64,000 nucleotides of DNA from an uncultured delta proteobacterium (GTDB taxonomy: Bacteria; Desulfobacterota; RBG-13-43-22). Under the pieces are notes generated by a model that saw only the letters and a list, made by a program, of their open reading frames with translations, did not search any database and was not told the origin of the DNA. The translations under genes were made by a program, and so were the position numbers. The stretch lies in the NCBI GenBank assembly GCA_963802945.1, contig CAWDKY010000025.1, positions 32,001-96,000 on the forward strand. Direction: 5' to 3'. Of this stretch, positions 8,003 through 37,535 are shown in pieces. The stretch's first letter is position 1; each line of letters opens with the position of its first letter.

Positions 8003-8133
8003 TGTCTTTCCTCCCCATTATTAAGTTTTTTGTGTGCTTAAAACAATATACGCTATTTTGTATAGGCATATTATATATGGTTAGCTTAGCAAATTATAAA
8101 CACTTTTTGATAAGACTTTTCTTTTGATGGGAG

Positions 8134-8162
8134 ACTATAAAATAAGGGAAAGATAGAATCAA
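8134..8162 (-). promoter_or_regulatory. Outward-facing sigma70 promoter in the IS end
   Basis: TTGATT-17 bp-TATAGT pointing at ORF 7523-8002. Confidence 0.65.
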
Positions 8163-8320
8163 GGAGAAAAATGAGGCCAAAGATAGGGTGACAAAGGGGG
8201 ACTTCAAAAAAAAAGGTATTTTACCGGTCGAAATATTAACAATAGAGGGAGATAAAGAGAAAAGAAGAGGCAAATTGCCAAGATTTGAACAAACTACTCC
8301 CTTTACATCCTGATTTTCCC

Positions 8321-9655
8321 TTAACCGGAGGAATGATCTGAGGAAGTCCTGAAATCCTGGTCAAAGGCTTCCTCATAGAAAGGAAGTTGGGAGTCCGAGT
8401 AATCTATCTGAAGTTCGAGGGAGTTGGGTTTGGGTGGGGGTCTCTGATTGGTTTGCCATAAGCCCAAGTGCAAAAGAATCTTGTTGATTACTTCCTGATC
8501 GTCTATAATACTGATAATCCGCATCGGCCCTTGGCATTTGGGGCAGGTCAGGGGATCGACTTCGTAAATCTTTTGAATCAAGCGAGCCCAATTCCGGTTG
8601 GGTTTGGCGTTCTCATCTGGTTCCAGGACACAGGGAATGAGGGCATCTTCATTTTCTTTTTGACGAAGTCCCCGGGAGACGTTACTATAGAAACCATAAT
8701 AGCGAACCATTTGTTCACGCTGATCGGGGATATGGGAGGTCATGGCCGCCAGCCAATCTAAGGCATCGAAGATTTTTTCTTGCCGGTTGTCCTTGGAGCG
8801 GTAGATGATCCGGGATTCTTCCGGGAGATAGGGCATTCGTTCCTGAGAGAAAGAGGCCCGGATGATATAGCGTGCCAGGTTTTCCATAGCCTCTTTTTTT
8901 CTTGGCAGGATTCGGGGTCCGCAAAAAACCTGAAATCCCGAATGCCTCCAGGATTTCAGCAGATTAATATGATCGGGAGTGATTTTACCTTTAGAGAGAA
9001 GCAAGGTAAGAACTTTGGATCTGTAGATTTTTTCCAGATATTTAAGATTAACAGTCGGGACGACCTTAAAAAAACCCTTCTCGGGGAAACAACCATCGGT
9101 AATCAGAACATGGCCGTGGGGGTTAAAGCCCAGAAAATCTCCAAAGGTTTGGATGGCGATGACCGCCCCCGGAACGGATTTTTTACCCGGGTGGGAATGT
9201 TGATAATAGATTTTCAAAGATTCCCAAATACAGCGGCTGAGTTCTAAAAGCAACCTTCGATCGTAGAGAAAATATCTTCGCAAAATTTTAGGGATACCGA
9301 ACACGAAATGCCTGTGAGGGACGGCTTTAATTACGTTTTGACAGAGCCATTCCCCGAATTCCACTACCCTCTTTTGATGACAGGATGGGCAAAAGTGACG
9401 GCGTTTACAAGAAAAGGCCAATAGATATTCATGGCCGCAGTCTTCGCACTTGATCCTGGCAAAACCGTTGAGGAGATTGCCACAATCCAGATACCTCTCC
9501 ATAACCTTTCTGACATGTGGTCGAAAGAATCCGTATATCCTTTCAAAACGATCTTCATAAACTTGTTCCAGGGTTTCAAGGTGGTCTTCAACGCAGCGAT
9601 AGTAAGGGGTCTGTTTGGGATTTCGAGGACGGTATACGGGTGAAGGGACGAGCAT
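8321..9655 (-). CDS. IS91-family transposase (Zn-binding domain + HUH domain)
   Basis: GFARIKCEDCGHE..AFSCKRRHFCPSC, HRHFVF, QTFGD..FNPHGHVLITDG, LARYIIR, VRYYGFYSN, C-terminal CPKC. Confidence 0.95.
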   Translation of the reverse strand: MLVPSPVYRPRNPKQTPYYRCVEDHLETLEQVYEDRFERIYGFFRPHVRKVMERYLDCGNLLNGFARIKCEDCGHEYLLAFSCKRRHFCPSCHQKRVVEFGEWLCQNVIKAVPHRHFVFGIPKILRRYFLYDRRLLLELSRCIWESLKIYYQHSHPGKKSVPGAVIAIQTFGDFLGFNPHGHVLITDGCFPEKGFFKVVPTVNLKYLEKIYRSKVLTLLLSKGKITPDHINLLKSWRHSGFQVFCGPRILPRKKEAMENLARYIIRASFSQERMPYLPEESRIIYRSKDNRQEKIFDALDWLAAMTSHIPDQREQMVRYYGFYSNVSRGLRQKENEDALIPCVLEPDENAKPNRNWARLIQKIYEVDPLTCPKCQGPMRIISIIDDQEVINKILLHLGLWQTNQRPPPKPNSLELQIDYSDSQLPFYEEAFDQDFRTSSDHSSG

Positions 9656-9667
9656 GTTGCTGGAGAC

Positions 9668-9683
9668 TGCATATTCTTTGCCA
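9668..9683 (-). promoter_or_regulatory. Putative sigma54 (-24/-12) promoter for the transposase
   Basis: TGGCAAAGAATATGCA (GG-N10-GC), 12 nt upstream of the ATG. Confidence 0.5.
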
Positions 9684-9821
9684 TTTCATTTAGGTCGTTA
9701 TTTTAAGCAAAATACGGGATAATGAAGAATAATGTTGTAGATAACAGCGAAGAAACTTTACACCGATTGGAACTTTTAGTTTCAAATCAGAAAAAAGAAA
9801 TATTTTTTTGGATGAAGAAAA

Positions 9822-11126
9822 TTGGCCTCTTTCGTTTGCCCTGACTTCCCGCAATCCGCAATCCGCAATCCACAATCCGATTTTGATGTTATTGTCATCG
9901 GCGCCGGGGCCTCAGGGATGATGGCTGCGGGCCGGGCTGCGGAAATGGGGGCCCGAGTCCTTTTGTTGGAAAAGATGCCCCGCGTTGGATTGAAGCTCGG
10001 TATAACTGGCAAAGGGCGTTGCAATTTGACTAACCAGGGCGACATCAATGCCTTTCTGGACAGTTATTCTCCGGACGGCCGGTTTCTCCGAAATTGTCTG
10101 GCCCGTTTTTTTAATCAGGATTTGATGAATTTTTTTGAACAGCGTGGGGTGCCTTTAGTCGTGGAAAGGGGAGGGCGGGTTTTTCCAAAATCAAATCGGG
10201 CCCTGGATGTAGTTTCCGCTCTGGTGGGTTTTATAAGAGAGAAGAAAGTTACAATAGTCAAAGAAGATCCAGTCCAGGAAGTCATGGTTCATTCCGGCCA
10301 AGTGGAAGGGGTCGAGACACAAAATGGAGCCTTCAGGGCCCAGGCCGTAATTTTGGCCACAGGCGGGGCCTCATACCGGAAGACCGGTTCGACCGGGGAA
10401 GGTTTTCGAATGGCACAACAGGCTGGTCATAAGATTGTACCCATCCGTCCTTTTTTAATCCCTTTGAAAGTCAAGGACCCTTGGGTCAAAGAACTCCAGG
10501 GGCTTTCTTTAAAAAATGTCTCGGCATCTGTATTAATAAATGGCCGGAAGGATTGTTCGGAGTTTGGAGAGATGCTTTTTACCCATTTCGGGGTTTCCGG
10601 ACCGATCATCCTGACCCTGAGCGGCCGGGTGGCCGATGTCCTCAAACAAGGCCGAGTAGAAATCTCAATTAATCTTAAACCCGCTTTAACCCAGGAACAA
10701 CTGGATGAGAGATTGAAAAGAGAATTGAAGACCCATCATCTCAAAGGACTACAAGGGATATTGAAATTTTTATTGCCCAACAGGATGATCCCGGTTTTTC
10801 TGGCCCTTTCCCAAATTCCAAGGGATAAAAAAGGAAATCAGATTACCGCAGAAGAACGCTCACGAATGAGGACCTTGCTCAGCGACTTCAGAATGACAGT
10901 GACCGGGACCCGGCCTCTGGAAGAGGCGATCATCACTGCCGGCGGTGTTCTCTTGAAAGAGGTGAATCCCAAAACCATGGAATCGAGAATTATCAGCGGA
11001 CTTTTTCTTTGCGGCGAGGTTTTGGATATTCAGGGTAAAACCGGCGGCTACAACCTGCAGGCCGCCTTTTCTACCGGCTGGGTGGCCGGAGAGAGTGCGG
11101 CGAAACGAGTGACAAGTGACGAATGA
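9822..11126 (+). CDS. NAD(P)/FAD-dependent oxidoreductase, HI0933/BaiN (YhiN) family
   Basis: GAGASG, GKGRCNLTN, GRVFP, LFTHFGVSGP, TGGYNLQAAFSTG; start codon uncertain. Confidence 0.93.
   Translation: MASFVCPDFPQSAIRNPQSDFDVIVIGAGASGMMAAGRAAEMGARVLLLEKMPRVGLKLGITGKGRCNLTNQGDINAFLDSYSPDGRFLRNCLARFFNQDLMNFFEQRGVPLVVERGGRVFPKSNRALDVVSALVGFIREKKVTIVKEDPVQEVMVHSGQVEGVETQNGAFRAQAVILATGGASYRKTGSTGEGFRMAQQAGHKIVPIRPFLIPLKVKDPWVKELQGLSLKNVSASVLINGRKDCSEFGEMLFTHFGVSGPIILTLSGRVADVLKQGRVEISINLKPALTQEQLDERLKRELKTHHLKGLQGILKFLLPNRMIPVFLALSQIPRDKKGNQITAEERSRMRTLLSDFRMTVTGTRPLEEAIITAGGVLLKEVNPKTMESRIISGLFLCGEVLDIQGKTGGYNLQAAFSTGWVAGESAAKRVTSDE
9841..10047 (+). repeat. Direct repeat copy 2 of 7319-7525
   Basis: Direct sequence comparison; it begins in an AATCCGC heptamer tract. 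Confidence 0.95.
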
Positions 11127-11181
11127 CGAGTTACGAGTTTAAAAACATTTGAAAGGCTGACTTGAAAACCATAACTCGCAA
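11103..11181. repeat. Heptamer array (GTGACGA-like) overlapping the flavoprotein stop codon
   Basis: gtgacaa gtgacga atgacga gttacga ... cataactcgcaa. Confidence 0.7.
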
Positions 11182-11193
11182 TAAAAATCATTT

Positions 11194-12237
11194 ATGACCT
11201 CAAAAATCGATCTCCGAAATCTGACTTTCGAAGAATTGCGGGACTGGATTGCCGGCCTCGGATTAGAGCCTTACCGGGCCGAACAGATCTCTCGTTGGAT
11301 CTTTCAACCGGCCATCACCACCTTTGATCAAATGACTAATTTATCCAAGAAATGGCAAGGCCTTTTCCAGGAGCAGGCTTATTTAAGCAGGTTGTTAATT
11401 CAGAAAATCGAAACATCCTCCGATGGATCTCAAAAATTTCTTTTTAAGTTGGAGGATGGAGAGCATATTGAAAGTGTCCTGATCCCCGAACGGGGTCATT
11501 ACACCTTGTGCATTTCTTCCCAAGTAGGTTGTGCTCAAAAATGCCGTTTTTGTTTTACGGGTAAGATGGGTCTTAAAAGAAACCTCAAGGCTTCGGAGAT
11601 CATCAACCAGATCCTGGGCGTTCAAGAGACATTAAGAGACAAAGATCCCCTTTTGACCAACATTGTTTTAATGGGCATGGGGGAACCCCTGCACAATTTT
11701 GAAAGCACAATTCGGGCCTTAAAGACCATGCTATCCCCGAGGGGAATGCAGTTTTCTCACCGCCATGTAACTCTGTCCACGGCCGGTCTGATTCCGGAGA
11801 TCAAGGCCCTGGGTAAAATCCTTCCGGTAAGTCTGGCGGTTTCCTTGAATGCGGCCGATGATACGACCAGAAATCGCCTGATGCCTGTCAACCGGAAATA
11901 TCCCCTGGAATCCTTGATCCAGACTTGTCGGGAGTTTCCTTTGCCCCACGGTAAAAGGATCACCTTTGAATATATCCTGATTAAAGGCATCAATGATTCC
12001 CCACTGGCAGCCAAGGCCCTGGTCAAATTACTTTCCGGGGTAAAGGCCAAGCTCAATCTGATCCCTTTCAATCCCCATCCCGGCGTTGGCTTTGAACCTC
12101 CTGATGAAAAGGATCTCGTAAGGTTTCAAGATATCTTGATCCGTTCTCAGTATACCGCCATCATCCGTAGAAGCAAGGGGGCCGATATCTCGGCTGCCTG
12201 CGGGCAGCTCCACGCCGAATGGACCTCGCCTCATTAA
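11194..12237 (+). CDS. rlmN: Dual-specificity 23S rRNA/tRNA m2A methyltransferase
   Basis: CISSQVGCAQKCRFC, MGMGEP, DISAACGQL. Confidence 0.96.
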   Translation: MTSKIDLRNLTFEELRDWIAGLGLEPYRAEQISRWIFQPAITTFDQMTNLSKKWQGLFQEQAYLSRLLIQKIETSSDGSQKFLFKLEDGEHIESVLIPERGHYTLCISSQVGCAQKCRFCFTGKMGLKRNLKASEIINQILGVQETLRDKDPLLTNIVLMGMGEPLHNFESTIRALKTMLSPRGMQFSHRHVTLSTAGLIPEIKALGKILPVSLAVSLNAADDTTRNRLMPVNRKYPLESLIQTCREFPLPHGKRITFEYILIKGINDSPLAAKALVKLLSGVKAKLNLIPFNPHPGVGFEPPDEKDLVRFQDILIRSQYTAIIRRSKGADISAACGQLHAEWTSPH

Positions 12238-12281
12238 AAGGATATTCTTTAGAGAAACCAAATGCAGACAGTTTCAATAGG

Positions 12282-12310
12282 TTGACACGATTTCCTTTTA
12301 ATATTATAAT
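12282..12310 (+). promoter_or_regulatory. Consensus sigma70 promoter for the hisI-hisG operon
   Basis: TTGACA-17 bp-TATAAT, perfect match. Confidence 0.85.
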
Positions 12311-12373
12311 GTTTTAAATTGATTAGGAATTCTATTTTTTTACTATTTTTGTTTTCCAAAATGGAAACTTCCC

Positions 12374-12757
12374 ATGGAAATTAAACTTAATTTTGAGAAA
12401 GGAGACGGACTTCTTCCGGCCATCGCCCAGGACTGGCAGACCGGACAGGTCCTCATGATGGCCTTTATGAATCGGGAGGCCTGGGAGAAAACCTTGACCA
12501 CCCGTAAGGCTCATTACTGGAGTCGTTCCAGGAATGAACTTTGGTTTAAAGGCGGCACTTCCGGGCATGTACAGGAGGTCAAAGAGATTCTTGTCGATTG
12601 TGATGGGGATTCCATCTTGTTGAAGGTGGAACAACTTGGCGGGGGGGCTTGTCATATGGGCTATAAGAGCTGTTTCCATCAAAAAATCAAAGAAGACGGG
12701 ACGATGGAAATTGTCGGTAAAAAAGTTTTCGATCCCGAGGAGGTTTATAAAAAATGA
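12374..12757 (+). CDS. hisI: Phosphoribosyl-AMP cyclohydrolase
   Basis: [31 protein letters not shown]. Confidence 0.96.
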
Positions 12758-13626: not shown

Positions 13627-13629
13627 GTC

Positions 13630-16336: not shown

Positions 16337-16379
16337 GTTTTAAAATATATTTATCTTAAAAAATAAGAAGGGAGTTAAT

Positions 16380-20286: not shown

Positions 20287-21816
20287 TCAAATATTAAGTT
20301 TGCGCAATTCTTTGCGTAGAATTTTTCCCATGGGGTTTCGGGGCAGGTTTTCTGTAAATTCAATATATTTCGGCCATTTGTTTTTGGCCAGTTTTTCCCG
20401 GCAATACTTTAAAATCTCCTCCTGCGTTGCGGTCAGGCCTGGCTTTAAAACGATATATAATTTTATCTCTTCCCCCATAATCTCATCAGGCACGCCAATG
20501 GCCACTACGTCCTGAACTGCCGGATGCTGGTAGAGGATTTCTTCCAGATCTCGCGGATAAATATTAAACCCGCCTCGGATAATCAAATCTTTCTTACGTT
20601 CAACAATATAAAGATAACCGTCTTCATCCATCTTGGCCATGTCACCGGTGTGAAGCCAGCCATGGCAAAATGTTTTAGCTGTCTCTTCAGGCATTTTGTA
20701 ATAGCCCACTGAAATATTGGGGCCGGACACCAGTAATTCGCCGACTTCTCCCACAGGGACATCCTGGTCTTCATCATCCACAATACGGACCTGTACTTCA
20801 GGAATAGGCTGGCCGATGGAGCCGGGCTTTGTCGGTCGGTGATGATAATTGGTGCTGACCGCAGGAGAAGCTTCGGATAGTCCATAGGCCTCATAAACCG
20901 TGCAGTTAAATTTTTTTTGAAAGGCCAGAAGATTGGCTACCGGAAACGGCGCCGAACCGGAAAGACAGCCCTGCAATGAAGACAGATCGTATTTATCGGC
21001 CTCAGGACTGTTGAGCATAGTCATGAACATAGCCGGTGAGCCCGGAAAATCGGTCACTTTGTATTTTTCGATCAATTGGAAAACCTTTTCCACCTCGAAT
21101 TTGGGCATCAAGACATGAAGGTTGCCATACTTATAAGCCTTATTCATAGTTGTCAAACCGAAAGAATGGGAAAGAGGCAGAGCAACCAGAGTTATGTCCG
21201 AAGATTGTGTGTCATGGGCGCGGGCGGCATTGACGGCGTTGGAATAAAGATTCTTATGCGTAAGCATGACGCCTTTGGGCGTTGAGGTAGTGCCGGCGGT
21301 GTAAAGGATCACCGCCAGATCATCCTCGGCAATGGCTGGGACAACCTGTTTTTCAGGATGGTCATTGATCAGTTGAGAAAAAGAAATGGCCTTCCCGCTT
21401 TTTGCTGGGCTTGCAGTCGGGTCATGGCCGTCCCTGATGATTATATGCTGCAGCGTCTCGATGGTTCGCAGTATGGCTTCATTTTTCTGAGCAATATCGC
21501 TGATGGTGATCATGGCGACTGCGCCGCAGTTATTAAAAATGTGGGTTAATTCCTGCGGGGTCGTCAAAGGGATGAGGGGAACTATAACAGCACCGCAGCG
21601 GAGGATACCCTGATAACTGATAATGACCTGGGGGCAGTTGGGGAGCATGACCAGTACATGATCGCCTTTTTTCACGCCGAGTTTTGTCAAAGAACCGGCC
21701 AGATTTTGGGCCTCGCGGATAATTTGCTGGTTGGTGAAGATCTGATCATCAAAAATCAGAAACGGATATTCATTGAAACTCTTCAGATTCTCATCAGCAA
21801 GTGCGACAAGGTTCAT
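20287..21816 (-). CDS. Long-chain fatty acid--CoA ligase
   Basis: YTAGTTSTPKG, YGLSE, HTGD, PRNPMGK. Confidence 0.92.
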   Translation of the reverse strand: MNLVALADENLKSFNEYPFLIFDDQIFTNQQIIREAQNLAGSLTKLGVKKGDHVLVMLPNCPQVIISYQGILRCGAVIVPLIPLTTPQELTHIFNNCGAVAMITISDIAQKNEAILRTIETLQHIIIRDGHDPTASPAKSGKAISFSQLINDHPEKQVVPAIAEDDLAVILYTAGTTSTPKGVMLTHKNLYSNAVNAARAHDTQSSDITLVALPLSHSFGLTTMNKAYKYGNLHVLMPKFEVEKVFQLIEKYKVTDFPGSPAMFMTMLNSPEADKYDLSSLQGCLSGSAPFPVANLLAFQKKFNCTVYEAYGLSEASPAVSTNYHHRPTKPGSIGQPIPEVQVRIVDDEDQDVPVGEVGELLVSGPNISVGYYKMPEETAKTFCHGWLHTGDMAKMDEDGYLYIVERKKDLIIRGGFNIYPRDLEEILYQHPAVQDVVAIGVPDEIMGEEIKLYIVLKPGLTATQEEILKYCREKLAKNKWPKYIEFTENLPRNPMGKILRKELRKLNI

Positions 21817-21856: not shown

Positions 21857-21885
21857 AATATAAAAAAGTTTCAGGGAAGAGTCAA
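21857..21885 (-). promoter_or_regulatory. sigma70-type promoter for the acyl-CoA ligase (outside the IS remnant)
   Basis: TTGACT-17 bp-TATATT. Confidence 0.55.
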
Positions 21886-21898
21886 TACCTTTCTGAGT

Positions 21899-22097
21899 TT
21901 AATAAGACTATTCGTTCTAAAGAGGCTACTACAAAACAGGAAAACATGGGATCAAGGGGGAACATAAGGCCAAAAGTGAGGGGGTAAAGGGGGCTTGTTA
22001 AGAAAATGGGGCTTAACCAATGTAGATTTTACCAGGTAGAAAGGAAGCTGGGAATCGGAGTAGACCATCTGCATTTCGTGGGATTTGGGTTTGGTGG
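21899..22097 (-). mobile_element. Decayed, internally deleted IS91-like remnant (end + transposase C-terminal fragment)
   Basis: 21899-22035 aligns with 8107-8235; 22036-22097 aligns with 8377-8438 (PPKPKSHEMQMVYSDSQLPFY vs PPKPNSLELQIDYSDSQLPFY). Confidence 0.8.
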
Positions 22098-22196: not shown

Positions 22197-23870
22197 TCAG
22201 GCCCGCGTCGGTTCTGACGGCACTGTAGATTTCATGGCATTTTTCTGGGACCATCTGAGAAAAGCAAGCCGAATGATGGCCGGAAGCATGGCCAACAAGT
22301 ATAATATACGGTAAGACGGAGCGTTCTCAAAACCTGTGACCGGTGGTGGGAGGGGCAGCGATTCGCGAGCGGCCAGCTTTTCTTCTCGGAGCACCTCTCT
22401 GTCGTCATAAAGGCCGGCCTCGATTTTTTTCAGATGGCGGATATAATCCTTCCGGGCATATCGGGAAAGATTGCGGTTGATCCGTTTCATGGAATACCCA
22501 AAGCCGATCCCGAAGAAAGATCGGAACAGGTCTTTGGAAAAGATATTTTTCAGAATGTTCCAGTGGGAAAAGACCTCGTTGTTGATCTCAAAAATCAATT
22601 TCTGCAGTGTGCTCGGCTTCATACGCTTCGGGAAATAAGTAACAAAGCTCCCCGTCATATAGTCGTAGTAATCAAGATTGCCTGGTGCCGTTTTATCGTA
22701 GTATGTTTTGAACCGCCTATTTAAAGGGGTCAGAAGTTCTTTCGATTCATCGGTTTCCAGGTCATGCAGAATAAACAGGTTTAAAAAAAGCCTGTTCTGT
22801 TTGACGAATCGTATTATCTCCCGAGCACTTTCCGGCGTATCTTCATCATGACCGATGACGAATGTGGAAAGCGCGTTCATGCCGTGCGCCTGGATATTAT
22901 GGATGCTTTTCAGGACGGCATCGTGGGTCTGCTTTTTATTGAAGGCCTCGAGGCTTTTATCGCTCAAGGACTCGACGCCGACAATGATCACTTTTACCCC
23001 CGCCTGCCGGAGAAGCTCGAGCATCTCCGGGTCTCTGCCGATCTCATGACGTTCAAAGATGATAAATCCGGCGGCGATGTTTTCCTCAATGATTCTTTGC
23101 AGAAGTTCCCGGGTCTGTTGACGGTCGCTGCAGAAGTCGTTGTCCACAATAAAACATCGATCCTGAGGTTTGAACCTTTTCTTGATGTTGGCCACGACAC
23201 TCTCGACATTTCTCCGCCGGTAGACGCCCTGAAAGAGCCTGTTCGTGGGGCAGAATTTGCAGCGAAACCGGCAGCCCCGCGTGGTCTGAAGGGTGTGGAT
23301 ATTGACCCGGAGCCTTTTGAACAATGGCTTGACGCGGTCAAAACCCTCGATGAGCGTTGTGTCCGGCATGGTTGACGGTATTTCCGGAGGACTTCCTTCC
23401 GGGTTATGGATGGCCTGTCCGTCTTTCAGATAAGAAATTCCCGGAAGGCCGTGCGTATCGAGACCCTCATTGAGGCATTCAATAATGCGCGGCAGGACCT
23501 CATCGCCTTCACATCGAACGGCATACGAACAGCAATCGAGGACCGTCTCTGGAAAGAAACAGACTTGCGGTCCTCCCAGGATGATCGTCAGGTTCGGCTT
23601 CTCTTGTAAAACTCTCTGGCAGAAAGCCCTCACTTTGTTCAGCGCCGGAACAAACACGGAAAGACACAGGACGTCGGCATCCGTTATCACATCAAAGTCT
23701 AAATCACTCACACCCTCGAGAAAATATCGGACCTCATAACCCTTGTCCCGCATGAGAGAGGCCAATAGCAAGCTGCCGTACTTGGGAAAGACCGCCATGA
23801 GTGTACCGAGCGTGTTGGTCTTAGCATTAAACTCCACAAAATTGATCCTGCGAAGGCGAGACCCTGTCAT
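22197..23870 (-). CDS. B12-binding domain radical SAM protein
   Basis: QTTRGCRFRCKFC and an N-terminal cobalamin-binding-like region; the ATG at 23870 follows GGAGG. Confidence 0.88.
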   Translation of the reverse strand: MTGSRLRRINFVEFNAKTNTLGTLMAVFPKYGSLLLASLMRDKGYEVRYFLEGVSDLDFDVITDADVLCLSVFVPALNKVRAFCQRVLQEKPNLTIILGGPQVCFFPETVLDCCSYAVRCEGDEVLPRIIECLNEGLDTHGLPGISYLKDGQAIHNPEGSPPEIPSTMPDTTLIEGFDRVKPLFKRLRVNIHTLQTTRGCRFRCKFCPTNRLFQGVYRRRNVESVVANIKKRFKPQDRCFIVDNDFCSDRQQTRELLQRIIEENIAAGFIIFERHEIGRDPEMLELLRQAGVKVIIVGVESLSDKSLEAFNKKQTHDAVLKSIHNIQAHGMNALSTFVIGHDEDTPESAREIIRFVKQNRLFLNLFILHDLETDESKELLTPLNRRFKTYYDKTAPGNLDYYDYMTGSFVTYFPKRMKPSTLQKLIFEINNEVFSHWNILKNIFSKDLFRSFFGIGFGYSMKRINRNLSRYARKDYIRHLKKIEAGLYDDREVLREEKLAARESLPLPPPVTGFENAPSYRILYLLAMLPAIIRLAFLRWSQKNAMKSTVPSEPTRA

Positions 23871-24063
23871 CAGTATTACCTCCAAATTATCCCCGAATCG
23901 GATAATTTTACTTCTTTACCAGCCATTTTTTGTAGCAGGCCCCCCGCGATCTGCAAAGGGCCGCCCTATTCACGGAGAGGCTCGAGTAACCTTGTTTGAG
24001 TGCCGCCAGATTTTTCTTTTTTCAGTCTCTTTAATAAGCCCATCGTGGAAATCAGAATGGGCA

Positions 24064-24360
24064 TTGATAGGACTTGCTTTTTATAGGGAGAGTATAAAAC
24101 AACAAAAAAATAAGATCAAAGAAAAAAGAGGGCCAAAGGTGAGGAGACAAAGGGTCTTCTGAAGAAAAAGTAACTTTGCCGGGTTGTATTTTACAGATAG
24201 CAGGCGATAGGGAGAAAAAAGAGGTAATGAGGGGGTCTTCATTTTCTTTTTGACGAAGCCTTCGGGAAGCGTTACTATAAAACCATAATAGCGAACTATT
24301 TGCTCGCGCTGGTCGGGCATAGGAGAGTACATAGCCGCTGGCCTATCTAAGCCATCAAAT
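24064..24360 (-). mobile_element. Internally deleted IS91-like remnant (end + transposase fragment)
   Basis: 24064-24227 aligns with 8107-8275; 24228-24360 aligns with about 8638-8770 (PDQREQIVRYYGF). Confidence 0.9.
24091..24119 (-). promoter_or_regulatory. IS-borne outward sigma70 promoter pointing at the radical SAM gene
   Basis: TTGATC-17 bp-TATACT. Confidence 0.65.
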
Positions 24361-28425: not shown

Positions 28426-28460
28426 GATCCCCAATGGTCAAAAAGAAAATTCTTGTAAGA

Positions 28461-28871: not shown

Positions 28872-28946
28872 GGACCTCCTTTATATTCCTTTATATTCCT
28901 TGAGGATTTTTTAGCTAATTCAACAAGGTCCTCATTGGCTTTGGGG

Positions 28947-29236: not shown

Positions 29237-29291
29237 TTTATTTTCTCTTATTCTCAGATTGATCTTGTTGCTTTTCTCTTTCTCGGGAGGT

Positions 29292-29555: not shown

Positions 29556-29820
29556 ACAATTTTTTCTCCTCTTTTCGAGAACGTCTCACCGAAATAATCC
29601 TAATCGTCTCATTTCTTATTGTATAGATAGCCGTCCATAAATGATTACGGAGATTTCCGATCAGAATGAAACGATTTTCCAGTGGATATGGTGCTTCAAT
29701 TTCTATTCGGTCAGGATCTTCCCAAAGCATCCTGGCCGAATAGAAATCAATCCCGTGCTTTTCCCGGTTAAGTCCCCTCTTGATGGGATCCCAATCAAAA
29801 TTCATGGGAATATTATACAT
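29524..29820 (-). CDS. BrnT family toxin
   Basis: FDWDP.K...N.EKHGIDF, IRIISVRR. Confidence 0.88.
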   Translation of the reverse strand: MYNIPMNFDWDPIKRGLNREKHGIDFYSARMLWEDPDRIEIEAPYPLENRFILIGNLRNHLWTAIYTIRNETIRIISVRRSRKEEKKLYEKEKISPNQ

Positions 29821-29858
29821 ATTTTGTACAAAATTGCAAAAGATAAATTAGGTCTGAC

Positions 29859-32800
29859 CTATGCCTTCAGTATCTCCTTGTGCCGGAGGGCGCGTTCAAG
29901 ATAGGTGTTCATCTTCATGTCGCGGAACTCGGGGATGACGAAGTCCAGGTGGGCGATGGCTTCTGACTTCTCCTGCGGAAAGTGCTTCAGCAGCAATTCC
30001 GCAAGTTCAAGACGGCTGAGGGCCAACTCCGGCCGGAACCTCATCTCTGTGCAAATTCTGATGGCTTCCTGGTAGTGCTGGTGGGCTTCATCATATCTCT
30101 CCAGCAGGGCCGCCGCCCCGCCCATGTGGCGGGGGATGCAGGTGGGAAAGAAAATGCCATTTGTAACCACGCCGGTACCGGCGAAGCGCTTCAGCAGCAG
30201 TTCGGCCGCTGGTTTATAAGAGGTCAACACAGCAGCCTCGAAAAAAGGGGGGTCCACAAAATTAGGTGTCTCATCTTCATCCGTACCAATAAAAGGGCGC
30301 CTCACCACCCCTTGTTTCAATAATTCTATTGCCTCCTCTTTCCTTCCAAGATGAGCCAATACCAGGCAAAGCAATGAAGTTGGCCCTTGACTTGCAATAA
30401 AAAGGCGGAGACGACGTTCAAGGTCCTCAAGAGACCTGCCCAGATATAACAGGGCTCTATTCCCAGTCAAGCCGGCTGTTATAATGGCACTTTGGAGCAT
30501 ACCGGCTTCTTCACCTTTGGAGCGTATCTCTCGGGCTGTATCTAACGCCTCTTCTATTCGGCCATCCATAAGCTGCAGTAGCGCATCCATTCCTAAGGAC
30601 CCAACCAAAAGGTTAGTCAGCCGTGTGCGTTTGGCTATGTCTCGTAGCTCTGTCCAAACCTCCTCCGCTTTTTGCCGTCTTCCTAAAGCGAGAAAGGTAC
30701 TACCAGCCGATGCCAAAAATCCACCCCTAAGATATGCTTTCACTCTTGGGTTTGACACTTCTATTAACTCTTCGGCAAGTTTTGCGTTCTCTTGAGCGTG
30801 CTTGGGTGCCGTCCGATAGGTTAATAGCATATAAGCTCCTGCCAATAAATTATTTGGGTCATTTTGATTTCGTGCCAAATCAAATCCCTTGGTCAGGAGC
30901 TTGATCCCCAAAAGCATATTTCCTGTAGAGTAGGTTATAGCCCCGAGAGTCATGTCCGCAAGGGCTCTCCCTAAGGTGTCAGGACTGGTATGACGATCGG
31001 CTCGTTCAGCCCACTCCGCTGTTTGAGGAGTGGCAACCCCCGGGCCGGCTTGTTCGCCATTAATGGCCCATAACGCGGACTCACAGACACGAAAAGCTCG
31101 TGAACTATCCTTAAGTGCTTCGGCAAGTGCAAAGGCCTCCGGGGCCACTTCGTCCTGAATACGTTTGAATTCCACGGCTAAAAGTAAGGCATCGCATAAG
31201 TCCAAAAGCAGGTCGCATCTTTTCGCCTTGTCCTCCGGGTCCAGGATTTCCTGGACCTTGATGGCCTGGTCAAGGAGTTTTACAGCCTCTCCGTAAGCAT
31301 AAACGGCCGTTGCCCTCTTAGCCGCCATCTCCCCATAGTTCACTGCTTTCGTCAGGTCGGCGGGATCGGATGAATAAGAGAAATGCTCGGCCAGCTCCGC
31401 CGCATGCTCCTCCAGCCGTGCCTTGTACACTTCCTCCAAGGCCCTTGCCACCTGCTGGTGCAGCCGGATACGGCGTGGGGCAATAATCTCTTCATAGAGT
31501 GTCTGGCGAAAGAAGGCATGGGCAAAGCGATAGTTGACGGTAGCTCCCACACCGGTCCTCTCTTCTATCACTGCCGCCTTCCTGGCTTCCTCCAGGGCTT
31601 TAAAGATTTCTTCATCGGTCATCCCGGCGACCTTCTGCAAGACCTCCAGCCGGAAGTCCCGACCAATGACCGCCGCCACGGCCAGCACCTTGTTACATGA
31701 TTCGCTTAAGCTGGAAAGACGCTTGCCGATGACATCCCTCAGTCCGTCCGGGATGCGCATCTCCACCGGAGTGTCGCCTTTGGTCTGCCAGCGCCCTTGC
31801 TCCCGGGAGATGACACCCTCTTCCGCCAGGTAACGCACCACCTCCTGAACAAAGAGGGGATTGCCTTCGGTCTGGCGGTGCACGGCTTCGGCCAGTCCCC
31901 AGGGCACCTCCTGCCCGGCGATGCTGGAAAGCATCCTTCTGACCTCATCGGCATTAAGACCTCTTAGGAGAACACGCCCGAAGTTGGGCAAACGTCTTAA
32001 TTCGGCCAAAGAGGCGGAAAGGGGATGGGCCCGGTCCACTTCAATATCCCGGTAGGTGCCGACCAGCAAGAGCCGCTTTCCCTCTAAGTAACGGCAGACA
32101 TGCCCGAGCATCTCCAGAGTGCCCCTGTCGGCGCTATGCAGGTCCTCCAGCACAATCAGCAAAGGCTGGGCCTTTGAGGCATTGCCTAAGAAGTCGGTCA
32201 CAGCCTGTAAGAGACGGTATCTTTCTTCCTCGGGGTTGACCTTGGGATCGGGCTCTATCTTGAGCCGCTCCCTCACCTCGGAGCAAATACGGGCCACGTC
32301 GGGTGCACCTGTGCCCAGTTCCTTCCTGAGTTCAGTCAGGTCACGGTCTGTGGCGTAGGACCTCAAGGCCTCCACAAAGGCCAGATAAGGCAGGGATAGT
32401 GAGCCTTCTTCATAGCAGTGACCGACGATGGATTTACCACCCCGCAGGCTTACATAAGTAGCCAACTGCTCGGTAAGGGCGGTTTTGCCGATGCCCGGCT
32501 CACCCACTACCATTCTTAAAGAACCTTGTCCTGATAGGGTATTATCAAAAGCAGACTGGAGTTGTCTTAACTCCGGCTCCCGGCCGATGAACACCTTCCG
32601 GTAGAGGGGATTCTCCACCATTACTTCTTTTGTGGATGCCTTCAAGGTTTTTCCTGCCTCGATGGTTTCCAAAGCCTTCAGCACCTCGGTGGCTGAAGCC
32701 GGGCGTTTCTGCGGGTCTTTCTCCAAAAGCTGTAAAATGAGGGCGGACAGGGGAGAAGGTAGATCAGGTCTGTGCCAGGTAAGGGCCACAGGCGGGGTAT

Positions 32801-33665
32801 TGATATGCTGTCCGATGATGGCCACGGCATCATCGCCGCTGAAAGGAGGCCGGCCGGTCAGCATCTCGTAGAGCATGGCTCCCAGAGAGTAAAGGTCTGC
32901 TTTGGCCGTAACCTCACCACCCATGGCCTGCTCCGGCGGCATATAATAATAGGTGCCCACCATCATCCCGGATTGGGTCAGTCGGGAGAGCTCCATAGCG
33001 ATGGCCAGTCCGAAATCGCCGATCTTGGCTGTGCCGTCTGTGCCCATCCAGATATTGCCGGGCTTGATGTCCCGGTGGATAATACCTTTCCCATGGGCAT
33101 ACTCCAGACCTTTACACACGGCCTTGGCTATGCTGAGCGTTTTTTCAGGGGACAGGCGGTGCTCCGGGGCTTTCTCGATAAGACCCTCGACATCGCCGCC
33201 GGGCATGAGCGGTAAAACGACGTAGGGTTGACCATTCTCCTCGCCCATATCGAAGATACCGACGATATTGGGATGGTCGCCGAGTTTGCCCATGGCCTTC
33301 GCTTCCCGGCTGACACGCAGGCGGGAGGCTTTGTCCAGCTTCTCGGTCTTGATCAGGGCAAAGGCCACATCCCGGTCCAGCACCGTATCATGAGCCAGAT
33401 AGACTTTCTTCTTTCCCCCTTCACCCAAGAATTTTTTGACCTGATAGCGGCCATTGGCAAAGGAGGTGGGGACAGGGGAGGGCGGGAGCGTAACCGCCGG
33501 TGGAGCTTGAGTTAGAGGCTGGCCACATTGGAGGCAAAACTTAGCGGCAGGAGGATTGGCATGTTTGCACTGGGTACAAATCAATTCGTTCTGCAGTGTC
33601 CGGCCACAAACCATGCAAAACTTGGAATCATCAGGAAGCTCAATCAGGCAACTCGGGCATTTCAT
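29859..33665 (-). CDS. Double zinc-ribbon + Ser/Thr kinase + STAND-like AAA ATPase + helical/TPR-like protein
   Basis: CPSC/CMVC/CTQC/CLQC; HRDIKPGN, DFG; Walker A GEPGIGKT; LEDLH; TEGNPLF; YRFAHAF. Confidence 0.9.
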   Translation of the reverse strand: MKCPSCLIELPDDSKFCMVCGRTLQNELICTQCKHANPPAAKFCLQCGQPLTQAPPAVTLPPSPVPTSFANGRYQVKKFLGEGGKKKVYLAHDTVLDRDVAFALIKTEKLDKASRLRVSREAKAMGKLGDHPNIVGIFDMGEENGQPYVVLPLMPGGDVEGLIEKAPEHRLSPEKTLSIAKAVCKGLEYAHGKGIIHRDIKPGNIWMGTDGTAKIGDFGLAIAMELSRLTQSGMMVGTYYYMPPEQAMGGEVTAKADLYSLGAMLYEMLTGRPPFSGDDAVAIIGQHINTPPVALTWHRPDLPSPLSALILQLLEKDPQKRPASATEVLKALETIEAGKTLKASTKEVMVENPLYRKVFIGREPELRQLQSAFDNTLSGQGSLRMVVGEPGIGKTALTEQLATYVSLRGGKSIVGHCYEEGSLSLPYLAFVEALRSYATDRDLTELRKELGTGAPDVARICSEVRERLKIEPDPKVNPEEERYRLLQAVTDFLGNASKAQPLLIVLEDLHSADRGTLEMLGHVCRYLEGKRLLLVGTYRDIEVDRAHPLSASLAELRRLPNFGRVLLRGLNADEVRRMLSSIAGQEVPWGLAEAVHRQTEGNPLFVQEVVRYLAEEGVISREQGRWQTKGDTPVEMRIPDGLRDVIGKRLSSLSESCNKVLAVAAVIGRDFRLEVLQKVAGMTDEEIFKALEEARKAAVIEERTGVGATVNYRFAHAFFRQTLYEEIIAPRRIRLHQQVARALEEVYKARLEEHAAELAEHFSYSSDPADLTKAVNYGEMAAKRATAVYAYGEAVKLLDQAIKVQEILDPEDKAKRCDLLLDLCDALLLAVEFKRIQDEVAPEAFALAEALKDSSRAFRVCESALWAINGEQAGPGVATPQTAEWAERADRHTSPDTLGRALADMTLGAITYSTGNMLLGIKLLTKGFDLARNQNDPNNLLAGAYMLLTYRTAPKHAQENAKLAEELIEVSNPRVKAYLRGGFLASAGSTFLALGRRQKAEEVWTELRDIAKRTRLTNLLVGSLGMDALLQLMDGRIEEALDTAREIRSKGEEAGMLQSAIITAGLTGNRALLYLGRSLEDLERRLRLFIASQGPTSLLCLVLAHLGRKEEAIELLKQGVVRRPFIGTDEDETPNFVDPPFFEAAVLTSYKPAAELLLKRFAGTGVVTNGIFFPTCIPRHMGGAAALLERYDEAHQHYQEAIRICTEMRFRPELALSRLELAELLLKHFPQEKSEAIAHLDFVIPEFRDMKMNTYLERALRHKEILKA

Positions 33666-34081
33666 GATAACCTCCTATCAGAATTGCATGATGAGTATAG
33701 GTTGGTCATTGGTGATTGTCAAGAAGCCAGGGAATACGGCACCAGTTCGATTCATCAACATTTTCTGCTTTCTCAGGTTGGCTGGATTACCAAAGCTTTG
33801 GCATTATGTAAAACTTGATATAATTTGTTCATCATGCTATTTTAATTAAGAAAACATTATGTTTATGTCTATCAATTAAAGGGAAAAAAATAATAAATCC
33901 GCGCTGGACCTCAAATCTAAGAAGTGTGGACCTGACATCGATGAAAAAGCAACTGAATATATTGCAGCAAGCAGTTAACAGTATTTTAGTACTTACACGA
34001 TGATTGAAAATTTATATTGGGTTCAACCTATTTTTCATATAATATAAAAGCCATCTTTATTAATGAATGGAGTTTTATTAA

Positions 34082-34936
34082 ATGAAAAATTTCAAATGGA
34101 ATGTTTCAACCTGTTGGACCTTGTTTGTTGTGGCTTGCATCTTGATTTTCGTCGGTTGCGCCGGTATTCAAGCCCCGAGCAAGCCTGCTGCCGTTCCTGA
34201 GATCAGTCCCGGGCTCCTGAAGGGTTATCTGCCGTTCAACGCACTCCCCAACAGCTTGGCCTTGATTCCTCAACCCCCGACAACGGGCTCCACTGCTTTG
34301 GCCCTGGATGAGGAAATTTTTCGTAAAACTCGCACCTTTCGCGGTACACCGCGCTGGGAGCTGGCAACTCAAGACGCTGAGCTGAAGTTCCCGCAGGCGG
34401 CCGGGACTTTCTCTTGTGCCATCAATGCCCCGATCACCGAGAAGGATACCCCCCGTCTTTATATACTGATGCGTCGTACCCTCATGGATGCGGGACTTTC
34501 AACCTACGCGGCCAAGAGTAAATACAAACGACCCCGCCCTTTCGTTGTGAACAAAGAGACAAGCTGTACCCCTGATGAAGAAAAAAAACTGATGACCGAC
34601 GGATCATATCCTTCCGGCCATGCTTCTCTCGGCTGGGCTTGGGCCCTCATCCTCACGGAGATCGACCCGGAACATACCAATGCCATATTGGCCAGAGGCA
34701 GGGCTTTCGGTGAAAGCCGGGTAGTTTGCGGCGTCCATTGGCAGAGCGACGTGACCGAAGGGCAATTCATAGGAGCAGGTACAGTCGCCAGGTTACATGA
34801 CGATCCGGTCTTCCGCGCAGATATTGAGGCCGCCAAGGCCGAATTGGCAGCCGTCCGTGCTAAAGGCTTCAAACCGCTTCGTGATTGCCAGGCAGAAGCA
34901 GCGGCGATGGCCTTCCAGCCGCCCCCAGCTAAGTAG
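34082..34936 (+). CDS. Class A nonspecific acid phosphatase (PAP2), lipoprotein
   Basis: KYKRPRP, SYPSGH, SRVVCGVHWQSD; lipobox VGC. Confidence 0.92.
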   Translation: MKNFKWNVSTCWTLFVVACILIFVGCAGIQAPSKPAAVPEISPGLLKGYLPFNALPNSLALIPQPPTTGSTALALDEEIFRKTRTFRGTPRWELATQDAELKFPQAAGTFSCAINAPITEKDTPRLYILMRRTLMDAGLSTYAAKSKYKRPRPFVVNKETSCTPDEEKKLMTDGSYPSGHASLGWAWALILTEIDPEHTNAILARGRAFGESRVVCGVHWQSDVTEGQFIGAGTVARLHDDPVFRADIEAAKAELAAVRAKGFKPLRDCQAEAAAMAFQPPPAK

Positions 34937-35141
34937 CCGGCCGATTAAATTTATTTTGACAGGTTGAATAAAGGACTGAGGCTTTGTTATGTGTTTTCCA
35001 AAGCCCCAAATGAGGATTGGCCTTAGATCGGAATGACGGTCGCAGGGATTTAAAATTCAAGATTAAAGGTTTTTGACTTTTTTCATTTTAGCAGGAAGGG
35101 GTTAACAGCCGCCTCCCGTCGGCACCCGGTTGAACTACACC

Positions 35142-37337
35142 CTAAGCGTTAAGTGTCTCGCTGATTCTTGTTTTTGTTTCCTCATTCAGGAAATCCCATA
35201 ACCCCACCTTTTTTAAGGTATTGATCGTTGGGATTCCCGAATCGTTCCAACCCCGTTCCTGATAATAGACTTGAATCAACTTGCGAAGTTGCTCTTTCCT
35301 ATAGTTCATCAGAATTTCCCGTTTTTCTGATAGGTTCATGGCTGAGATCTCCGGGATGGGTTTTCCCAAAATCCGGCTCACTTCATGATCGTTATAATCC
35401 ATTTCAGCCTTATAGATTTGATCATCGGTCGGTCCGATGGCCCTGTCGGGTATCCAGTCGTGTTCCCCGGTAGTTTTTCCGTAAGTCATTATGTTCATAA
35501 CCCGCTGGAGATTGATATCCCGATCCGTCTGCTCGAAGATTTTTTCCCAGGTCATTTCCGTTCCCAGCATGCCGTTATAAAATTCGGCGTATATCTCCTG
35601 GGAAGCGGGATTGATGTATTTATCCGTATCCTTTTTGTTTTCGGACTCGGGATTGAACACATCCACCCAGGGGAGCTTGCACAGACCCAGATTGTCGTTT
35701 CCCAGACGGACACGGGGATAGGTGATCAAGGCCCTGGCCTTGGCTTCAAAAGTAGGAAAGGCCCCGATTAGATCCAACTTGATGAGCCAGGCGGCGGCAT
35801 GATGGGCTCCGATATCGCTGGCCGCTGCATAGGAACCCTGCATGGACAAGGAGCGGTGGGTGCGGTAAAGCGAGAAGGGAAGCCCTTTGGTGTGCATGGC
35901 AAAGCGTGCCAGCTCTTTTAAAGGAGCCGCCTTTCCTGTTCTCCGAGCATATTTCCCGGCTATCCAGTTGATTAATTCAATCATTCCTTTGCCGGCTGTT
36001 TCAGCCAATTCGTTTTCCTTATAGGCAATTTGATGGATAAAGGCCAAGGCTGCTTTTTGATCGCCCCAGTTCAATTTAAATCCGTTGGTATCCTCTTCCG
36101 TCAGATAACCTCTTTGAAAGCATTCCATGATCAAGGCCATAATGACGGCCACGGTAATGGTATCCATGCCATAGTTGTCGCAGTGCCAGTTGGCCTCCAT
36201 GATAAACTCAGGATTCCATATGCCGAGGTTGGAACCGAAGCCGGCGGCTGTTTCATATTCCGGCCCATCCACCCAGACCCGCTCTTGGCGGGGACCGGTG
36301 GTCAGGGTCACGCAGCCCCCCTTGGTGCATCTCAAATTGCATCCCGGAAAACAGCCATCCATCCCACGATGCTCAAATAATCGCTCGGCATAGGTCGTAC
36401 CACATATCTGCCCGGCCTGAGGGTCTGACCCAAACTGGTAATTTTTCACCGGCAGGGACTGATAGGCCTCTTGATTCATGAAAGAGATCAGACCGGCAGA
36501 GCCCTTCTTGGACATTTGCAAGGAGTTCGGGTCGACTTCCTTGACGACTTTGTGAAGCCGGGCCCCGGCCTTTTTGACCCTCTCCCAGTCATGAGCGCCA
36601 TAGGGGTTTTCGCCGTGAGGATATTCAGCCAGGATAACGACGGCCCGTATATTTTTATCCATCATCACCGAACCCAGACCGGTCCTGCCGGCCTGTTTGG
36701 TTCGAAAAATGCCTCGGCTTCCATCCATCGGTTTAGTAGGATCATAGTAATGACTGTTAATACATCCATAGGTCGTATTGGCGGCCCCAATACCTGTAGA
36801 AATAAAAACGATATCTTTTTTGCCATAACCCTGACCCAAGAATTCATCGACCAGATTCTTTCCGAATGCAAAAACCTGATCAATGGCCGATGCCTCTGTC
36901 AAATAGATCTCGCCTTTAAAACCATCGATGACAATCATGGTGCCTTTTGGAGCTTTCCCGATTATTTCCAAGACATCGAAACCGGCATATTTAAGGTAAG
37001 CTCCGAAATGCCCTCCGAAATTGGAAACACCGGGGATATGGGTTATGGGAGATAGCGATATGGCCATGCATTTGCTGGTGCCTGGGAACTGAGGGATGCC
37101 CCCGAGAGGCCCGGGAGACAGTATCAGGGGATTTTCCGGATCATAGGCCGAGGTTTTTGAGGTTACCCTTCTGTGAAGGAAATATAGGCCCAGTGCCCGG
37201 CCGCCTATAAAGAAGTCCCTTATCTTCGGATCCAGTTTTTGGACCTTGATGTCACCTGTGTCCACATAGATGGAAAGTGTCTGATTGGCATATCCGTGAT
37301 GAAGATGAGGTTTTGAATAGCTCATCATTTTTGACAA
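35142..37337 (-). CDS. Aldehyde:ferredoxin oxidoreductase family (W/Mo-pterin)
   Basis: FIGGR, SNFGG, AGRTGLGSVM..KNI, C..C...C, GPEYET, CDNYGMDTI, YYQERGW. Confidence 0.92.
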   Translation of the reverse strand: MSKMMSYSKPHLHHGYANQTLSIYVDTGDIKVQKLDPKIRDFFIGGRALGLYFLHRRVTSKTSAYDPENPLILSPGPLGGIPQFPGTSKCMAISLSPITHIPGVSNFGGHFGAYLKYAGFDVLEIIGKAPKGTMIVIDGFKGEIYLTEASAIDQVFAFGKNLVDEFLGQGYGKKDIVFISTGIGAANTTYGCINSHYYDPTKPMDGSRGIFRTKQAGRTGLGSVMMDKNIRAVVILAEYPHGENPYGAHDWERVKKAGARLHKVVKEVDPNSLQMSKKGSAGLISFMNQEAYQSLPVKNYQFGSDPQAGQICGTTYAERLFEHRGMDGCFPGCNLRCTKGGCVTLTTGPRQERVWVDGPEYETAAGFGSNLGIWNPEFIMEANWHCDNYGMDTITVAVIMALIMECFQRGYLTEEDTNGFKLNWGDQKAALAFIHQIAYKENELAETAGKGMIELINWIAGKYARRTGKAAPLKELARFAMHTKGLPFSLYRTHRSLSMQGSYAAASDIGAHHAAAWLIKLDLIGAFPTFEAKARALITYPRVRLGNDNLGLCKLPWVDVFNPESENKKDTDKYINPASQEIYAEFYNGMLGTEMTWEKIFEQTDRDINLQRVMNIMTYGKTTGEHDWIPDRAIGPTDDQIYKAEMDYNDHEVSRILGKPIPEISAMNLSEKREILMNYRKEQLRKLIQVYYQERGWNDSGIPTINTLKKVGLWDFLNEETKTRISETLNA

Positions 37338-37364
37338 TACATTCCTCTTTTTGAGTTGTTATAA

Positions 37365-37535
37365 CCGAATTGGGCGAGTATAAGATAGAGAGGAAAAGGG
37401 AGTCAAGGAGAAAATCGGTGAAAAAAGAGAAGAAAAATCGGACCGGTTCGAGATAATCGAACGGGAGTTAGAATCGAAAGAAAATGAAAGGAATGAAAAG
37501 GGTGGGCGGTCTTCTGGGTGTTACCATAGAAAGAA
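37365..37535 (-). mobile_element. Highly decayed IS91-like end directly upstream of AOR
   Basis: ggg.gagtataa...tcaaggagaaaa resembles 8129-8170, followed by vestiges of DS(Q)LPF and LW..RPP; promoter TTGACT-18-TATACT (37377-37406). Confidence 0.5.

Follow-up and report, generated by a model that had tools for sequence, protein, structure and literature searches.

The DNA analysed here, referred to below as the window, is a stretch of 64,000 nt from an uncultured delta proteobacterium of the Desulfobacterota (assembly GCA_963802945.1, contig CAWDKY010000025.1, positions 32,001 to 96,000); window positions equal positions on contig C25 minus 32000. It carries an intact insertion sequence (IS) of the IS91 family and, in front of other genes on the same strand, remnants of the IS end that lies distal to the transposase gene tnpA. 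A first-pass annotation made from the letters alone had read four such ends as portable, domesticated promoters or gene-capture handles that persist after the transposase decays. The intact element and the end in question are laid out as follows.

8104-9786, minus strand: intact IS91-family insertion sequence of 1,683 bp, its limits set by comparison with independent copies elsewhere
8321-9655, minus strand: tnpA, encoding 444 aa (IS positions 132-1466), the sole intact copy in the assembly
8104-8176, minus strand: right-end (oriIS-side) module of the intact IS, made up of a T-tract, a -35 box TTGATT (8162-8157), a 17-nt spacer, a -10 box TATAGT (8139-8134) and a terminus of about 30 nt ending ...TTATCAAA

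The tnpA product contains a Y2 domain and an N-terminal Zn-binding domain (Pfam Y2_Tnp, 7.7e-22, and Zn_Tnp_IS91, 5e-20) and scores 174.1 bits against the NCBIfam IS91 family equivalog NF033538, above the cut-off of 125; against the NCBIfam model ISCR_clade_Ia it scores 126.9 bits, where the cut-off is 925. Judged by its predicted transposase, the element is a member of the IS91 family outside the ISCR clade. The left limit at 9786 is the point at which homology begins in copies from other genomes (L001, L008 and L026), and the right limit at 8103-8108 is where homology ends in L009, L013 and L049. The left (ter-side) edge is ambiguous by about 40 nt and may lie as far out as near 9826: three full copies agree on 9786, weak similarity continues beyond it, and the left part of a mini-element described below is longer. 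The termini are unlike each other, as elsewhere in the IS91 family, with complementarity limited to 5 nt and no long terminal inverted repeats. DNA folds of both strands revealed no subterminal palindromes or hairpins at either IS end beyond those of shuffled sequences (z -0.22 to 0.78), a comparison that weak palindromes could escape, and no Rfam family was detected in window 7400-10100 at E <= 1.

The stretch originally flagged, 8107-8275, covers the IS from the tnpA stop codon to the right terminus, and this tnpA-distal right end is the oriIS side in the IS91 family, according to the part of the family account drawn on here (PMC13181058). The module directly follows the tnpA stop codon in the window and also in independent copies from other genomes (L001, L009, L049, L040, L070-L073, L075 and L078), and it therefore belongs to the IS. 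An nhmmer profile, in which the module occupies columns 150-220, was iterated from window 8090-8330 (minus strand) and used genome-wide with a cut-off of E <= 1e-3. Its matches in the window, all on the minus strand, lie at 8106-8323, 24064-24220 and 21898-22072; a further copy, found in a local search, falls below the genome-wide cut-off (17.7 bits, columns 143-220, with a 14-nt insertion). The remnants and the genes behind them are listed below.

24064-24220, minus strand: right-end remnant 5′ of the B12/radical SAM gene (profile columns 59-219), with TTGATC-17-TATACT at 24119-24091
24222-24359, minus strand: tnpA 3′ scrap joined to this remnant (IS positions 1017-1155, 83% identity)
22197-23885, minus strand: B12-binding radical SAM gene (Pfam), with a likely ATG at 23870, 193 nt past the remnant end
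21898-22072, minus strand: right-end remnant 5′ of the acyl-CoA ligase gene (profile columns 46-220), with a degenerate -10, TTGATC-16-TGTAGT at 21955-21928
22037-22094, minus strand: tnpA 3′-end scrap joined to the ligase remnant (IS positions 1354-1411, 83% identity)
21857-21885, minus strand: the ligase gene's own sigma-70-like site, TTGACT-17-TATATT, outside the remnant
20287-21816, minus strand: AMP-dependent acyl-CoA ligase gene (Pfam, NCBIfam)
37330-37426, minus strand: borderline old module copy abutting the start codon of the aldehyde:ferredoxin oxidoreductase (AOR) gene, with TTGACT-18-TATACT at 37406-37377
35142-37337, minus strand: AOR gene (Pfam AFOR_N and AFOR_C), with a likely ATG at 37328

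Three of the four co-oriented ends described in the first-pass annotation are thus recovered as profile matches, while the fourth, at the AOR gene, is borderline and shifts from the 37365-37440 first proposed to the position in the list. All of the -35/-10 strings quoted there are present at the coordinates above (8162-8134 for the intact IS), the separate site of the ligase gene indeed lies outside the remnant (21885-21857), and the fusion of remnants to fragments of the tnpA 3′ part, the remainder of the gene being absent, holds for the radical SAM and ligase copies. Every copy precedes a minus-strand gene, as had been claimed: those for a protein with a signal peptide (described below with the surroundings of the intact IS), the B12/radical SAM protein, the AMP-dependent ligase and AOR. 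Only the radical SAM gene was checked for being acquired, and no orthologue of it was matched at E <= 1e-100 in 13 other genomes of the genus.

Right ends across the genome and its relatives

The source assembly (G000) consists of 4.37 Mb in 72 contigs. A tblastn search with the transposase produced 53 high-scoring segment pairs, one full-length and 52 fragmentary, and the right-end profile produced 135 matches, 128 of which extend to the right terminus; after removal of four duplicate copies, 124 non-redundant ends were retained. At the same threshold there were no matches in the reversed genome and none in a locally shuffled genome, so the matches are not generic promoters gathered by profile drift. 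The copies grade from complete right ends that still carry tnpA 3′ scraps through internally deleted copies to bare modules of about 70 nt, and in 55 of the 124 homology is restricted to the sequence from about 12-16 nt 5′ of the -35 box onward. Many pairs of copies share 75-90% identity over 60-100 nt. The left end is rarely retained: only two blastn fragments touch the approximately 130 nt by which the tnpA start is separated from the IS left end, and neither of them extends to that end. No conserved bases flank the right end in 50 copies, positions +1 to +4 being near background, and the target tetranucleotide could instead coincide with the invariant bases that close the element as delimited here. 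Three queries against five relatives returned no clean empty site for single copies, and mostly brought back other copies of the repeat. For the IS on its own, an empty site was likewise not found.

Genes were called simply as the longest open reading frames (ORFs) of at least 90 aa, chosen greedily, which resulted in 4,028 ORFs that together span 81% of the genome. A module lies no more than 300 nt upstream of about 2.1% of these crude ORFs. The median distance from module end to ORF start is 82 nt, and many copies terminate 5-60 nt ahead of a ribosome-binding site and start codon, leaving no space for a second promoter. On contig C30 (locus L174, G000:C30:271500-290500), a stretch of 16 kb contains seven co-oriented modules, adjacent to single genes of unrelated kinds: radical SAM, DAPG-hydrolase-like, two nitroreductases, MarC, DUF2804 and a metallo-beta-lactamase fold. 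Module copies with identical flanks occur on contigs C64 and C16, on C72 and C29, and as an inverted pair on C62, which suggests either assembly redundancy or recent segmental duplication.

The modules are far from randomly oriented with respect to these genes, random orientation genome-wide being one outcome that the first-pass annotation had named as fatal to its promoter reading. The next ORF is co-oriented with the module in 106 of 124 cases overall, in 59 of 63 where it begins within 100 nt and in 86 of 93 where it begins within 300 nt (binomial p = 2e-18). The pattern persists at all score cut-offs, for example in 38 of 39 copies that score 60 bits or more and have an ORF within 300 nt. 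Among 120 copies flanked by ORFs on both sides, those in co-directional gaps comprise 61 sense and 5 antisense copies (p = 3e-13), and those in divergent and convergent gaps stand at 42:12, where a divergent share of 0.59 is expected from the available length (p = 0.005). The downstream gene is also co-oriented far more often than the upstream gene (discordant cases 42:12, p = 5e-5). Gene-strand correlation at a distance of 10-40 genes corresponds to a leading-strand bias of only about 0.6, and insertion on one replication strand therefore cannot yield the orientation pattern.

Conservation is concentrated in the two boxes. In 69 copies anchored by the sequence 5′ of the promoter, column conservation is 1.00/1.00/0.96/0.87/0.67 across the -35 TTGAC and 0.94/0.97/0.97/0.94/0.71/0.99 across the -10 TATACT, the latter mirroring the information profile of sigma-70 promoters, with spacer columns mostly at 0.4-0.9. 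As a control for detection bias we used a profile built from columns 1-158, which ends before the -35 box and gave 56 matches, 51 of them running to column 140 or beyond, 49 unique and 48 with sufficient downstream sequence. In these 48 copies the twelve hexamer columns have a mean conservation of 0.833, compared with 0.688 for the spacer and 0.684 for the leader after the -10 box (permutation p = 0.0012), and TTG...TAnnnT is kept in 37 of them, the ligase copy being among the 11 without it. Boxes no better conserved than their flanks, a second outcome that had been named in advance as speaking against promoters, are thus not what is seen, even with the boxes outside the detection profile.

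The IS end is a feature of the genus: BLAST searches recovered it from all 12 other genomes of the genus that were searched and from none of eight genomes belonging to other families of the phylum. In 69 loci taken around the best-listed places in the relatives there are 78 ends, 71 with a downstream ORF in the fetched stretch, and 51 of these 71 are co-oriented with it (39 of 52 within 300 nt, p = 4e-4). Six comparisons could be made between a copy in G000 and the copy at the orthologous gene in G004, G005 or G008, with protein identities of 71-96%. At these sites the 70-nt module is 80-96% identical, much as the first 150 coding nt are (84-96%), and the 100 nt 5′ of the module drop to 34-60% identity in four of the six. 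In the one pair with a long leader, the module is 87% identical as against 49% for the leader. In one orthologous set, IS-derived sequence is present 5′ of the module in G000 and G008 and homology in G005 begins at the module, which points to in-place erosion down to the promoter core. With one intact tnpA beside 124 ends, and modules retained at orthologous sites in other species, the earlier statement that the ends outlast the transposase is supported. Other short repeat families unrelated to the IS end were noted on contig C53 (locus L152, positions 430-497, 1709-1750 and 1751-1801), with many matches in G005 and some in G008; the genus seems to be rich in small dispersed repeats.

Some more distant relatives of the element carry a similar end. 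Twelve diverged IS91-like loci in other Desulfobacterota metagenome-assembled genomes, with transposases about 45-59% identical in the best segment, had been missed by the profile. In four of the 12 (L010, L014, L020 and L043) the pattern TTGAC-17-TA..(A/C)T occurs about 180-205 nt past the tnpA stop codon, where chance produced it in at most 7 of 300 shuffles per locus. The boxes are followed by the same terminal motif and separated by an unrelated spacer (region about 180-300 nt past the tnpA stop). Judging from these loci, the putative outward promoter is an old, conserved and ancestral feature of the right end in this IS clade, and as the boxes are kept across diverged IS lineages their conservation cannot be credited to host selection alone.

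Besides the right-end series, the genome contains a mini-element of about 265 nt composed of a left part, IS positions about 1330-1407 and IS positions about 1590-1681, in which both ends are kept, that with the promoter included. It is found at six or more loci whose flanks are unrelated, and G000 has about 10-16 near-full copies (for example C53:117443-117705, C53:121783-122040, C34:104083-104330, C6:1164-1393 and C15:387222-387472). Its left part of about 75 nt occurs in some 30 solo copies, and parts of the mini-element match dozens of places in G005. The ends are unlike and the flanks show no target duplication, so that it is not a miniature inverted-repeat transposable element (MITE); its appearance is that of a non-autonomous derivative amplified once internal deletions had occurred. 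Mobilisation in trans is plausible only for this mini-element, which retains both ends.

What the right ends may do

We propose, with a probability of about 0.68, that the IS91-type right end native to this Desulfobacterota genus acts as a portable promoter in the manner of the ISCR1 POUT promoters and has spread as right-end miniatures of the kind known from IS801. In this proposal the last 70 nt or so of the right end would constitute a near-consensus sigma-70 promoter directed outward, TTGAC(C/T), 17 nt and TATA(C)T, followed by the IS terminus of about 30 nt, and the more than 100 leftover right ends most likely switch on adjacent, unrelated genes. Copies consisting of the right end only would probably have arisen by premature termination of rolling-circle transposition, as shown for IS801, and by later deletion in place. 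Those that persist point overwhelmingly into the 5′ end of a gene, where the module would serve as the promoter of that gene and would then be held under constraint while the remaining IS erodes. The anatomy of the end, its copy number, orientation bias and conservation pattern, and its spread within the genus are observed, whereas promoter activity, the source of the truncated copies and selection upon them are inferred.

Published work on IS801 bears on the source of the truncated copies. In the part of that study drawn on here, fragments of 229, 360 and 679 nt with a common right terminus made up 26% of transposition events and were ascribed to transposition begun at ori and stopped prematurely (PMC3189936), which fits the nested series of right ends in this genome; no shared tetranucleotide was found at the left edges of the copies. 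The same sources, as far as they are used here, have replication in the IS91 family run from ori toward ter, away from the gene downstream of the promoter (PMC13181058, PMC3189936), and this does not fit the suggestion in the first-pass annotation that the ends are handles for gene capture. Its core idea of portable, domesticated promoters fared better, agreeing with both the orientation and the conservation data, with promoter activity itself predicted from sequence.

Several results weigh against the proposal. The orientation counts rest on crude gene calls, and the bias is weaker in the relatives, at 72-75%, where the least eroded copies (profile start <= 10) are near random, with 12 of 19 co-oriented overall and 5 of 9 within 300 nt. 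A trend from random young copies to oriented old ones is visible in the relatives (12/19 against 39/52) and absent from G000, where 14 of 16 copies with a profile start of 10 or less are co-oriented, and is not claimed here. Taken by itself, the consensus promoter scan of window 7900-9900 yields no more sites than shuffled sequence, and the conservation of the boxes across lineages is partly a property of the IS. The ligase copy has a degenerate -10 box, while the ligase gene owns a separate promoter-like site. At a further orthologous gene, G008 retains the copy only from the spacer onward, having lost the -35 box, and no module was found in G005; this series of present, partial and absent states indicates that not all copies are maintained.

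The strongest competing account, to which we give appreciable weight though less than an even chance, is that the boxes serve the IS itself, either as a promoter that reads into tnpA across the ori-ter junction of a circular intermediate or as part of the origin recognised by the transposase, and that the genomic copies merely inherit them. The retention of -35 box, -10 box and terminal motif in four of 12 diverged loci around a different spacer, against the low chance expectation in shuffles, speaks for such a role, and on the tnpA strand the consensus promoter scan detected nothing resembling a sigma-70 site from the IS left end up to the tnpA start codon. An IS function of this kind would explain why the element carries a promoter and is compatible with the portable-promoter proposal, but it leaves unexplained the orientation bias and the retention of modules at orthologous sites long after tnpA was lost. 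A different possibility is that the promoter is active and that selection acts only as a filter, purging as harmful the copies that are antisense or directed at 3′ ends, with the surviving sense copies tolerated without benefit. Orientation bias alone cannot separate tolerance from use, and tolerance is favoured by the decayed ligase remnant beside a gene with its own promoter-like site and by the orthologous set with a lost -35 box in G008 and no module in G005. We nevertheless consider a pure filter unlikely, since orthologous modules keep an identity like that of coding sequence while their flanks diverge (87% against 45-49% between G000 and G004) and since many copies stop 5-60 nt short of a ribosome-binding site and start codon, which leaves no room for another promoter.

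Two further accounts place the cause elsewhere and appear less probable still. An insertion preference, by which the transposase would target promoter-proximal DNA or one strand in a fixed orientation, has some precedent: IS91-family elements are described as using single-stranded DNA and showing target specificity (PMC13181058, in the part drawn on here), and in the portion used of a large survey convergent contexts are under-represented for IS91 (PMC9208149). A long-range strand bias of about 0.6 cannot give 61:5, though, and neither the excess of co-oriented downstream over upstream genes (discordant cases 42:12, p = 5e-5) nor the lack of conserved bases beside the end in 50 copies is in keeping with such targeting; the near-random orientation of the least eroded copies in the relatives (12/19) is the opposite of what it predicts, and we regard it as improbable. 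The least credible account runs in the reverse direction, with a repeated promoter of the host captured at the 3′ end of the IS and the short copies never having been parts of an IS, as the 55 of 124 copies with homology only from about 12-16 nt 5′ of the -35 box might suggest. Against it stand the graded series from full right ends with tnpA scraps to bare modules, the termination of module and IS at the same nucleotide in independent full copies, the same architecture in diverged IS lineages of other taxa, and the orthologous set in which G000 and G008 have the upstream IS part and G005 does not; we consider it very improbable. Portable promoters derived from the IS end thus remain our preferred reading. 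A bolder extension of it, which we put forward as speculation and hold to be doubtful, is that the ori end forms a regulatory cassette shared throughout the genus, through which more than 100 unrelated genes per genome would be co-controlled by the end-binding transposase, a derivative of it or a host factor, the same promoter also driving tnpA in the circle. The conserved leader of about 25 nt contains two ATCAAA repeats.

The segment around the intact element

The intact IS lies in a segment bracketed by direct repeats, with the following features besides those given above.

7523-8002, minus strand: gene for a 159-aa protein with a signal-peptide-like N-terminus, 104 nt past the IS end and co-oriented with the outward promoter
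7319-7525, strand not assigned: 207-nt direct repeat, copy 1, corresponding to the 5′ part of an HI0933-like flavoprotein gene, 98% identical to copy 2
9841-10047, strand not assigned: 207-nt direct repeat, copy 2, running on into the intact flavoprotein gene at 9822-11126 (plus strand)

The repeats bracket a block of 2,522 bp (window 7319-10047) that comprises the signal-peptide gene, the intact IS and 54 nt, and the stop codon of the inserted gene falls inside the first repeat. A close relative, G005 (locus L151), has a single copy of the 207-nt repeat and lacks the insert. Four 7-nt units (GGATTGC-like, minus strand) stand in tandem within the repeat near the start of the flavoprotein gene (window 9850-9890 and 7330-7370), and the few mismatches between the two repeats fall in this run. 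The block may represent a circle integrated by homologous recombination or a duplicative insertion; rolling-circle read-through was rejected as its source, since the extra gene sits on the ori side and the geometry is therefore wrong. The signal-peptide protein belongs to no Pfam or NCBIfam family and has no paralogue in G000, and the idea that its gene is a paralogue travelling with the IS was dropped for that reason. Its sole homologue, with 49% identity, is in G005 (locus L150, G005:C110:2500-7300), amid IS91-like scraps and two right-end modules.

Comparison with known systems

Outward promoters carried by insertion sequences are known mainly from single resistance genes in clinical bacteria. 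In the uncultured anaerobe studied here, about 2% of the ORFs appear to owe their promoter to one IS91-type end, and the same applies across its genus. If this is correct, environmental bacteria would have in the ends of rolling-circle IS a general and lasting supply of promoters and a means of rewiring transcription, and the module would offer a ready-made, short and strong promoter for a phylum poor in genetic tools. The copies, more than 100 per genome in 14 species, would also make a natural data set on how a selfish sequence wears down to a useful core.

The closest functional parallel is ISCR1, whose POUT promoters PCR1-1 and PCR1-2, located in the 232-bp oriIS region, raise the expression of blaCTX-M-9 and dfrA19 13- to 15-fold according to the part of the report used here (PMC6218425). 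ISCR1 is likewise a rolling-circle, IS91-related element with outward promoters past the transposase gene, on the oriIS side, before varied co-oriented genes. Its promoter activity is experimental, whereas here motif, position and orientation match and the promoter is read from the sequence. The present system also has one promoter, much nearer to consensus, in an environmental Desulfobacterota host; its downstream genes are metabolic or miscellaneous and not resistance genes, and there are more than 100 copies, mostly without transposase, on one chromosome.

IS801 offers the parallel for the miniatures, as its fragments are nested, sharing a right (ori) terminus and differing in their left starts. 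The part of that study drawn on here describes no promoter role for them and reports few copies, 17 truncated fragments across several genomes, most of which its authors ascribed to rearrangement (PMC3189936). With IS91, IS801 and IS1294 the present element shares the family transposase (Zn-binding N-terminal domain and Y2), functionally unlike ends and derivatives consisting of the right end only; it differs in that no subterminal palindromes and no conserved target tetranucleotide outside the end were detected. The portions of the literature on IS91, IS801 and IS1294 used here contain no description of an outward promoter (PMC13181058, PMC3189936), and none of IS91-type right ends as promoters across a genome was found in open-access literature text. 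Short multi-copy elements that put one promoter before unrelated genes are represented by Correia elements, ERIC, REPIN and "putative mobile promoters" (PMC3575422). The Nijveen/Matus-Garcia criteria for putative mobile promoters ask for 80% identity or more over 50 nt or more, located in the -150..-50 region of non-paralogous genes. Correia elements, ERIC and REPIN are of the MITE or repetitive extragenic palindromic (REP) type with inverted repeats, in contrast to the asymmetric rolling-circle IS end described here, which has an inverted repeat of at most 5 nt and no hairpin beyond shuffles. IS-borne outward promoters as such are thus known, and what appears to be new is their predicted occurrence as rolling-circle right-end miniatures, in more than 100 copies per genome and throughout a genus.

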